From contig CAXXLZ010000002.1 in NCBI GenBank assembly GCA_963675595.2, positions 320,001-384,000 on the forward strand: a DNA stretch of 64,000 bases, in the 5' to 3' direction. Below are positions 12,933 to 14,677 of the stretch, in pieces; within the stretch, counting starts at the first letter, position 1; each line of letters starts with the position of its first letter. The stretch is from Thermodesulfobacteriota bacterium (GTDB lineage Bacteria > Desulfobacterota > Desulfarculia > JACQYL01). Made by a program: the position numbers and the translations under genes. The notes under the pieces are model-generated. The model ran no database searches, was not told the origin of the DNA, and worked only from the letters and a program-made list of their open reading frames with translations.

Positions 12933-13163
12933 ATCATATTTGAGGCGAGTGGAAAGAATTGTTTAGGAGTATCATTTTAAACGGGGCTCCTCAACTCCGC
13001 TGATCAGGGGACGCTGTTGACTTGCGTGACAAAAGCCGCTAGTCCTTTGGAGTGGGTGAGATGGATGCGCCGGCCCGACCAAGATCCGCTTCAAACGGAT
13101 TCCTTTTCCGTGTGAACATGCCCGCTCCTGATCGAAGACCACACAGGTCACTCCCGCGGGCGT

Positions 13164-14085
13164 GTAGAGTAGAGCGCTGACGGCAAAGGAGTTCAGGCCG
13201 ACTTTTAGTGACGCCTCGCTGCACGCAGCTACTACGTGTCGTCTAATCTTACTTACCGACAGCGCCCCCTCGTCGAACCGGACGTGCGGATTTCCCGCAT
13301 CCGGCTCTCCGATGACCTTTCAGCGACAAGGCATTCGCAAGGAGTTGACGGCTTTCTCATGCAGGTAGAGCACCCCTTTCGTGCGCAGCGCCGCATACAG
13401 CGACGGCCCGTCCAGGTGTTGACAGCGCCGGTGGCTCCTCGTCTTCATGAATCGACGGAACCGGTTGTGGCCGGTTCTTGCTTGGCCTTGAGGCCCAGTT
13501 TCATCCGAAGAAGGGAGACTTTGGCGGCCACTCCATTTTCCGGCTTGACCCGATCCGTAGTGGGACGTTTTCCGTCCAAGCGGTTCTTCCTCCATTCGTC
13601 CGAAACACGATCAAAGTCCTGCCCCTTGGCTCCATCCTGTTTCCAGGACTTCTTCGCTACTATGGGCAAGTCCGACTCCCGGCAGGGACCGTGCAGCGGG
13701 TTATGTATTCCCCGCCGCCGTTTGGACTCGGGCTACCTGCCGCCCTGCCCGTCCCGCCGGGTCTCCCAGGTTCCCCGGCGCTCCTTCGAGTACATGCCGT
13801 CTCCAAACACCCCGGGCGGCATGGTGCGACGCTCCTGTTTTCCCATCGCACCATTGGCAGGTTTCCCCATATACGTGGAAGGTCACCGCCGCCATGCGTG
13901 TAACGAGGCCGAAGCGAGTTCACTTGCGTTACGGCCTGCACTCTATCTGACCTTATGGCCTTTTCCGGCCCGCTTGACGCCTCGGGTTACCCCTGCGCGC
14001 CGGGCCGGCGACTTCGCGGTGAACAGGCAATTACCGCGGGCGGAACTTTCATCCGCCAGGATCGCCAGAGCTTCGCCTGGCGCAC
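13164..14085 (-). mobile_element. Group II intron (IIB-like ribozyme, 922 nt) with internally deleted RT/maturase
   Basis: 5' GTGCG; domain V at 13275-13307 (AGC triad, GAAA loop, AC bulge); domain VI with bulged A 7 nt from the 3' end, ending CTCTAC; EBS1 ACGUAU (13871-13876) complementary to IBS1. Confidence 0.92.
13320..13669 (-). pseudogene. Remnant of group II intron-encoded protein (N-terminus joined out of frame to maturase C-terminus)
   Basis: KVSLLRMKLGLKAKQEP (IEP N-terminal RT0 region) abuts HNRFRRFMKTRSHRR...GPSLYAALRTKGVLYL; no YADD core. Confidence 0.75.
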
Positions 14086-14677
14086 ACGTATTCACGGGGT
14101 GCGCCGCAGAGGGACGCCGGCACGGGGGGGGACAGGGAAGATGGTGACATGGGCCTTCGGCCGACTATTGGGCAGGCACCATGGCCTGCCCCTACAATGG
14201 ACGAGTCCCCCCAGTGAATGATTACCCGCACGCATGGGGCGGCCGACGGATCGTCCCGGTTGGCTTTCCGTGAATTTCCGGTGTTCCCTTGACGGCGCCG
14301 ATCAGGATGCCCGGGCGGACAGCTTCCTTCATTGTTCAACATAGATTCGGCGCTTTCTTCACCTCGTTTGATGTTTTTGAGCGGTGAGCCTTTAATGCAA
14401 CGCCCTGCCCAAGCTTTCGATCAACTCTCGATTTTCCGGTCTTTCCCGCCACAACAAAGGTGGGCCTTCGGCCGTCTTTCGGGCAGGCACTGTGGCCTGC
14501 CCCTACAATAGATGAGCTCCTCCCGTGAGAGATTGCCATTTTTCAACAAAGATTCGGCATTTTATTCATCTCAATTGATGTCTTTGAGCCGCCTTCCTGG
14601 TAAAATGACCCCACCGATGGATGAAAAACAATCATGATCGGTTGTGACCACAGGATTTCTGCAATCGGAGGACAAGG

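Follow-up and report, generated by a model that had tools for sequence, protein, structure and literature searches.

Why does a group II intron lie two nucleotides from the tip of a transposable element, and did it land there by chance? The question is raised by a 64,000-nt stretch of contig CAXXLZ010000002.1 of a Thermodesulfobacteriota bacterium (hereafter the window; the genome under study is denoted G000 and its contigs C1, C2 and C3), in which a 922-nt group II intron splits the terminal inverted repeat of a MITE (short for miniature inverted-repeat transposable element) that is itself inserted into a longer repeat. The copies of this intron in the genome, their target sites and the related introns of other genomes make it highly probable that the intron belongs to a family with an endonuclease-less protein whose natural homing site is the terminal inverted repeat of an IS66-type element family. 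A first-pass annotation, made from the letters of the window alone, had proposed both the three-level nesting and an intron lineage adapted to IS66-like inverted repeats. The second proposal is borne out by the location of seven of the nine copies at MITE ends, by the covariation of exon-binding site 1 (EBS1) with its targets and by an intron at the same position in a second genome (locus L020 of genome G041).

The window intron, encoded on the minus strand (Table 1), displays the hallmarks of the group, namely the canonical pentamer at its 5′ end (14085), a domain V hairpin and a domain VI in which an A close to the 3′ end bulges out. Above-threshold Rfam matches cover domains D1–D4 (RF02003, 63.9 bits, 13924–14058) and D5/D6 (RF00029, 48.5 bits, 13164–13309). 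Domain VI has an unusually long stem and an unpaired A 7 nt from the 3′ end that is presumed to be the branch point; long RF00029 matches (138–150 nt) are also present in the closest relatives. No reverse transcriptase open reading frame (ORF) was found within 13164–14085, where a start codon (13504) and 34 nt of the ORF have been kept. Having lost its ORF, the window copy is a non-autonomous derivative that presumably relies on protein made by full-length copies, and its ribozyme looks intact.

Excision of the intron in silico yields a 142-bp MITE that aligns end to end with six other genomic elements of ~135 bp and places the insertion 2 nt from the tip, as the first-pass annotation had it. 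The element has the features by which MITEs are recognized: it is short, non-coding and multi-copy (the end region has as many as 112 matches), it ends in terminal inverted repeats and it is flanked by a target-site duplication. When the MITE is removed as well, the two flanking octamers, which differ at 2 of 8 positions, collapse onto the single empty site of a paralogous copy of the host repeat, a ~200-bp sequence with about 10 copies in the genome. The nesting of an intron in a MITE in a repeat is therefore real, as judged from the Rfam matches, the element alignment and the empty paralogous site. Genome-wide, four of the 62 candidate end pairs are flanked by perfect 8-bp duplications (~0.001 expected by chance) and two more by duplications with one mismatch. 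The core motif of the MITE end occurs 202 times on both strands and is followed by the tip dinucleotide at the right distance in 79 cases.

The locus was also compared, at 90% likeness, with contigs from four of the 22 runs found (X1, X3, X8 and X12). In run X1, possibly the source sample itself, contigs span both intron junctions without a single difference. An apparent empty allele, in which X3 and X8 contigs jump from ~13145–13158 to 14225–14234, was rejected because these contigs most likely represent the paralogous repeat copy near 11031 (89% alike). In X8, a run of a different organism, one contig contains 1102 extra letters exactly at 13470/13471, that is, the full-length form of the intron. 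This contig adjoins a MITE-type hairpin and its flank resembles that of the copy at C2:170865, so that at least one insertion appears to be common to strains or species.

Altogether, nine copies of the intron were identified in the genome: two ORF-less ones of 922 nt (the window copy and C1:183938–184859) and seven full-length ones of 2024 nt. The protein of the full-length form is 428 residues long and contains RVT_1 and GIIM domains (TIGR04416, 398.6 bits); a domain search detected no endonuclease domain in it. The seven full-length copies differ from one another at 0–2 positions per 2024 bases, and this near-identity argues for recent mobility; the ORF-less and full-length forms are separated by 22–24 differences in the shared 922 nt. 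The two ORF-less copies have the identical 1102-nt deletion, differ at 7 of 922 positions and reside in different MITEs on different contigs, which indicates that the deleted form moved at least once after the deletion, presumably with the protein supplied in trans by full-length copies.

For the analysis of site context, each intron was removed computationally and 400 nt per side were compared with the genome (junction at 400|401). Seven of the nine copies have the conserved MITE-end motif upstream and the 2-nt tip downstream; their upstream flanks produced 16–112 genomic matches that stop at positions 395–402, and the downstream DNA is unique. The remaining two, both full-length (C3:12337–14360 and C2:729463–731486), are ectopic, with unique DNA on both sides. 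Even at these sites the 3-base core at −10 to −8 is the same and the hexamer facing EBS1 is perfectly complementary to it, but position +1 is C rather than A. Both ectopic insertions look harmful: one is antisense inside a TrkH-like gene, in which removal of the intron restores a 512-codon frame, and the other, also antisense, precedes the start codon of an AraC-type regulator by 4 nt and has a divergent aldo/keto reductase gene in its vicinity. These two copies demonstrate that the intron can insert elsewhere, as would be expected if the window copy were a one-off chance landing in a MITE end with no particular tie to inverted repeats. Such an accident is barely credible given that seven of the nine copies occupy the identical position of diverged MITE ends, that EBS1 has been retargeted in step with the ends, and that L020 is placed likewise in another genome. 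The first-pass annotation had named copies in unrelated sequences as the observation that would overturn its interpretation; the survey did not overturn it, as only two such copies were found, both with the same short target, against seven at one position of MITE ends with EBS1 covarying with the end subtype.

The same distribution could arise by hitch-hiking, if a single MITE had gained the intron once and the composite had then been amplified by a transposase, so that the association would reflect the mobility of the MITE. The ORF-less copy at C1:183938 resides in a different MITE that shows a perfect 8-bp duplication once the intron is removed, a finding also expected of composite transposition. 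However, the MITE sequences beside the introns (120 nt) are only 48–77% identical between loci and belong to different size families, whereas the introns differ at 0–2 of 2024 positions; young introns thus entered old, diverged MITEs, which argues against amplification of a MITE-plus-intron composite. Furthermore, with its tip split off by 0.9–2 kb, the composite would lack a normal end, and no intact cognate transposase is present in the genome. We consider this scenario very improbable and favour direct homing of the intron into the inverted repeats.

As the sequences show, the intron RNA reads the outward-facing end of the repeat by ordinary pairing between exon-binding and intron-binding sites (EBS and IBS), with EBS1 contacting the six bases before the insertion, EBS2 contacting a conserved core of 3–5 bases one base further in, and A as the first 3′-exon base at MITE sites; pairing in this register lands the intron 2 nt inside the element tip. 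Both exon-binding sites had been picked out in the first-pass annotation, and both choices withstand scrutiny: the EBS1 hexamer of the window copy is complementary to all six terminal 5′-exon bases and lies in a predicted hairpin loop (intron positions 210–216 in the minimum-energy fold), and the EBS2 tetramer is complementary to its proposed target in the MITE end, with three inner pairs possible, and the target bases at −10 to −8 identical, at all nine sites. EBS1 positions 211 and 213 differ between the ORF-less and full-length subfamilies, and the respective targets differ at the paired positions −2 and −4; this amounts to changes in 2 of 6 bases of the hexamer, compared with ~0.14 expected from the overall divergence. 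Elsewhere in the intron, positions 8 and 19 change together between the subfamilies, keeping a pair in the 5′ hairpin. A plausible history is that the 1102-nt deletion removed the reverse transcriptase gene but spared the ribozyme and the ORF start, giving rise to the non-autonomous derivative, and that the two EBS1 substitutions re-aimed this derivative at a different MITE-end subtype.

The covariation extends beyond this genome. In an alignment of domain I from 21 related introns, in which covariation was read by eye, the homologous EBS1 loop is complementary at 6/6 positions to its own 5′ exon for six different hexamers (those of the ORF-less form, L020, L021, L024, the L052 group and L095), and in L021, L024 and L052 the segment homologous to EBS2 varies together with the 5′ exon.

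The assignment of the MITEs to the IS66 type rests on the comparison with a sister-genus genome of the same family (G001). Inverted repeats beginning with GTAA-like sequences and 8-bp duplications are features of the IS66 family (PMC11946415, PMC12898284; papers are cited by PubMed Central number and, apart from PMC10194956 and PMC3552965, for what excerpts of their text state). G001 contains an insertion sequence (IS) of ~1566 bp that encodes a PF03050 (DDE_Tnp_IS66) transposase of 466–469 residues (116.9 bits), has inverted repeats matching those of the MITEs and, in one copy, is flanked by a perfect 8-bp duplication. The MITEs of the genome under study are accordingly derivatives of an IS66-type element family with a cognate transposase in the sister genus, and the label 'IS66-like' given to their inverted repeats in the first-pass annotation is appropriate. 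In the genome under study itself, the family survives only as MITEs: none of the 17 multi-copy IS families identified there carries MITE-type ends. The genome is otherwise very rich in IS elements, with at least 17 multi-copy families of 1.1–2.6 kb, the largest of which have ~24, 21 and 18 copies.

The orientation of the introns is consistent with a mobility pathway that dispenses with an endonuclease. Each element would present the same site on both strands, so that one site would always lie on the lagging-strand template, the route likely taken by introns without an endonuclease. Cumulative GC skew points to a replication origin at about C2:3.08 Mb and a terminus at about C1:1.24 Mb, and eight of the nine copies have their sense strand on the G-rich side (leading-strand sequence), that is, in the lagging-strand-template orientation (one-sided binomial 0.02, on a small sample). 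The same pattern has been described for RmInt1, RmInt2 and other introns with endonuclease-less proteins, as excerpted from PMC4615759 and PMC4424553.

A protein-guided scan (tblastn) of other genomes confirmed 494 related loci, of which 80 with 53–73% protein identity were kept; these come from Desulfobacterota, Acidobacteriota, Planctomycetota, Verrucomicrobiota, Gemmatimonadota and others. At the DNA level, a search for close relatives produced a match in only one of 40 related genomes, G001, and this match was weak. Using a profile built from the clearest cases, we located the 5′ ends in 76 of 81 loci (the 80 kept and L017, the intron of G001). The closest relative with usable context, L020 (73% protein identity), comes from a metagenome-assembled genome (MAG) of Desulfobulbaceae (G041), and the 100 nt upstream of it are a repeat with 10 further matches in that genome. 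In seven of the eight loci examined, the empty copies of this repeat have a GTAA-type inverted repeat that extends 2 nt beyond the equivalent position and ends there; the eighth is cut by a contig end. The introns L023 and L017 are also preceded by the same core motif.

More generally, an inverted partner of the last 11 bases of the 5′ exon was detected within 600 nt in 13 of 67 loci, compared with 0.4 expected from shuffled tails (this test excluded nine loci that have hardly any 5′ flank and the five in which the 5′ end had not been located). An extension of the '2 nt from the tip' rule to the whole clade was considered and rejected. In 10 of these loci, which belong to other lineages and for which the 3′ end was also available, the inverted repeat extends 0–9 nt beyond the insertion point, which indicates that the exact 2-nt offset belongs to the Desulfobacterota branch and not to the clade.

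The excess of inverted partners could also be taken to mean that targeting is directed by structure in the manner of class IIC introns, with a DNA hairpin (a subterminal palindrome or paired inverted repeats) as the primary determinant and base pairing as a secondary one. In keeping with this possibility, several occupied ends have a hairpin just upstream of the target, and class IIC introns are reported to use hairpins in the available portions of two papers (PMC12584367, PMC4424553). On the other hand, the two ectopic sites lack a hairpin beside the target and share only the short base-paired motif, the MITE end of the window copy itself has no clear hairpin, and a 6-bp EBS1 and an EBS2 are present and covarying, unlike in the class IIC type, which is described as lacking EBS2 (PMC3753933, in excerpt). 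Structure-directed targeting therefore appears unlikely, and recognition of the inverted repeat by base pairing is the preferred explanation.

Several observations nevertheless weigh against homing into IS66-type ends as the natural habit of this intron. On the side of the host elements, PF03050 produced no matches in the genome under study, although the same search, run as a control, produced matches in 5 of 14 genomes. The sole trace of the cognate transposase in a protein search is an N-terminal fragment of 134 residues (C2:1555215–1555616, 56% identity) that is interrupted by two stops (a TGA and a TAG) and lacks a matching inverted repeat in its surroundings. The MITE pool is thus probably already dead, and immobilization of the MITE by the intron, as suggested in the first-pass annotation, is partly moot and may have no present effect, since no intact cognate transposase exists in the genome. 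Regarding the targets, ~30 empty MITE ends pair with the full-length EBS1 at no more than one mismatch, five of them perfectly, and these five are unoccupied, whereas three of the five MITE-borne full-length copies occupy an end subtype with one A–C mismatch to EBS1. Pairing strength alone accordingly does not predict occupancy, which is low and not simply ranked by pairing. The fifth base of EBS2 pairs only in the full-length family and is worse matched in the ORF-less subfamily, so that the EBS2 difference is not compensatory. One copy, C2:1401360, is in the wrong orientation for lagging-strand priming, and in G001 the 120 nt upstream of L017 are single-copy. Finally, splicing, retrohoming and the putative effect on MITE mobility are deduced from genomic sequence, the run sequences compared being contigs.

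The coordinates of the features discussed are collected in Table 1. Additional MITE ends of the same type are present in the window at 8272–8303, 15373–15404, 16562–16606 and 47186–47230, and other short repeat families and palindromes are dense there as well (for example, 7675–9153, 15185–16620 and 47063–47244).

Table 1. Features of the nested intron–MITE locus and its paralogous site (window coordinates)
Feature	Position	Strand	Basis
Group II intron, 922 nt, ORF-less, derived from the 2024-nt full-length family	13164..14085	-	Rfam RF02003 + RF00029; 98% identity to 1-615 + 1718-2024 of full-length copies
Extended domain VI, presumed branch A at 13170	13164..13268	-	fold z = -5.0; long RF00029 matches
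Domain V, standard 34-nt hairpin	13275..13308	-	cmscan alignments + fold
Junction of 1102-nt deletion (most of reverse transcriptase/maturase ORF gone)	13470..13471	-	comparison with full-length copies
EBS1, intron positions 210-215, hairpin loop	13871..13876	-	6/6 complementary to last six 5′-exon bases 14086-14091
EBS2, intron positions 186-190	13896..13900	-	tetramer 13897-13900 complementary to 14093-14096
MITE body; intron-proximal inverted repeat starts 14086, far inverted repeat ends 14225	14086..14225	.	end-to-end alignment + repeat coverage
2-nt MITE tip, separated from body by intron; 13163 = first 3′-exon base (IBS3)	13162..13163	.	
8-bp target-site duplication, left copy	13154..13161	.	
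8-bp target-site duplication, right copy; 2/8 positions unlike left copy	14226..14233	.	
Host repeat ~200 bp, left part (resumes at 14226); MITE inserted into repeat	13006..13161	.	
Empty, unduplicated site in paralogous repeat copy	11031..11038 (about)	.	repeat families D4 + D18; alignment

As a broader but doubtful possibility, the whole clade of 494 loci might be a lineage specialized on the arms of short inverted-repeat elements (MITEs, REP-like elements and transposon ends), with the EBS co-evolving and with the Desulfobacterota branch tracking IS66-type ends at the 2-nt offset across genera. Judging from their sequences, the targets of the clade look like arms of short inverted-repeat elements with sub-repeats. 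At the end of the 5′ exons in the clade, a 9–10-nt unit is often repeated two or three times in tandem (for example, in L054, L062, L065, L096, L070 and L025). In a Terriglobia MAG, seven near-identical introns (L042–L049) each follow a ~29-nt palindrome, the arms of which are conserved and the central three bases variable. At L067, 9 nt separate the 3′ end of one intron copy from the downstream 5′ end of a second copy, in a head-to-tail tandem that resembles the one described for RmInt2 in the accessible part of PMC4615759. In a Verrucomicrobiae MAG, an Rfam match to Acido-Lenti-1 RNA (L094:1375–1420, 46.4 bits) lies ~500 nt upstream of a related intron.

The locus offers a natural example of a retroelement that chooses a safe and abundant landing pad, given that dead transposon ends provide dozens of near-identical sites, on both strands and outside genes, and that the ORF-less derivative appears to have gained access to a new sub-pool of targets through two EBS1 substitutions. 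The contrast is found in the same genome, where the two copies that missed the MITEs hit a TrkH-like gene and the start region of a regulator. If the clade-wide pattern is true, the clade would parasitize DNA transposons systematically, as a hyperparasite whose insertions would label the transposon ends and possibly put them out of action. There is also a consequence for annotation because MITE and IS ends split by introns of 1–2 kb will escape repeat finders.

Bacterial group II introns commonly reside inside other mobile elements (PMC12584367). The first-pass annotation was uncertain whether targeting of terminal inverted repeats had been described, a doubt that does not hold, because the homing of RmInt2 into ISRm17 has been published and bench-tested (PMC4615759), which makes the novelty of the present case much lower than first thought. 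According to the excerpts available, all seven copies of RmInt2 in S. meliloti GR4 are located in the left or right inverted repeat of ISRm17 (PMC4615759), homing into these repeats was confirmed by plasmid assays and showed a lagging-strand bias, and the use of both repeats doubles the number of targets and guarantees one on the lagging strand (PMC4615759, PMC5894124). ISRm17 is classed as ISNCY/ISDol1 (PMC10194956). As far as these excerpts describe RmInt2, the family analyzed here shares with it a protein without an endonuclease domain, a single transposable-element family whose inverted repeats house all or most copies, a pair of sites on opposite strands of each element, the lagging-strand bias and relaxed pairing at some IBS positions. 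It differs in its hosts, which instead of an autonomous ISNCY/ISDol1 element are MITEs that belong to an IS66-type family and make 8-bp duplications, and in possessing a satellite subfamily that is ORF-less and retargeted. Should the clade-wide pattern hold, the single published case of RmInt2 would be extended to a broad evolutionary strategy, and many natural EBS/target pairs would become available for understanding and engineering the specificity of endonuclease-less introns.

Like RmInt1 in ISRm2011-2 and the introns borne by E. coli IS elements, the present family uses an IS family as its homing site. In those cases, the sites lie inside the transposase gene rather than in an inverted repeat. 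An IS that carries an intron is said to be blocked from spreading (PMC5894124, in excerpt).

With class IIC introns, which target terminators and attC sites (PMC12584367, PMC4424553), the family shares a target class that is multi-copy, non-coding and contains inverted repeats. Unlike those introns, which combine a DNA hairpin with a short IBS1, it employs a 6-bp EBS1 along with EBS2 and also uses sites devoid of hairpins. Membership in class IIC was rejected because EBS2 is present and covarying and the targets are transposon ends. The C-terminal motif of class D, as given in the available text of PMC4615759, was not seen by eye in the last 60 residues of the intron protein, and with the D motif and the IIC features eliminated, the intron may belong to class E, to class F or to one of the later 'g' varieties. 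The absence of an endonuclease domain and the IIB-like EBS1 and EBS2 are also features of class IIF introns, for example Ge.ur.I1. The multiple EBS–IBS interactions reported for Ge.ur.I1-1 (PMC3753933, in excerpt) are reminiscent of the periodic 5′-exon repeats in the clade of this intron. The host phyla of the clade overlap those of class F (PMC3552965), a circumstantial likeness.

The ORF-less subfamily has its own parallel. In Thermosynechococcus elongatus, ORF-less copies reportedly coexist with ORF-bearing relatives, have targets diverged along with their EBS and are mobilized by a shared protein. The present case involves another host, another lineage and other targets, and the retargeting takes place within one family of transposon ends. 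A literature search, with subscription journals and supplements outside its reach, turned up no description of MITE ends as homing sites for group II introns. Compared with the systems considered, what is new here is the use of IS66-type MITEs as hosts, the fixed 2-nt offset that is conserved in a second genome, and the retargeted ORF-less satellite.

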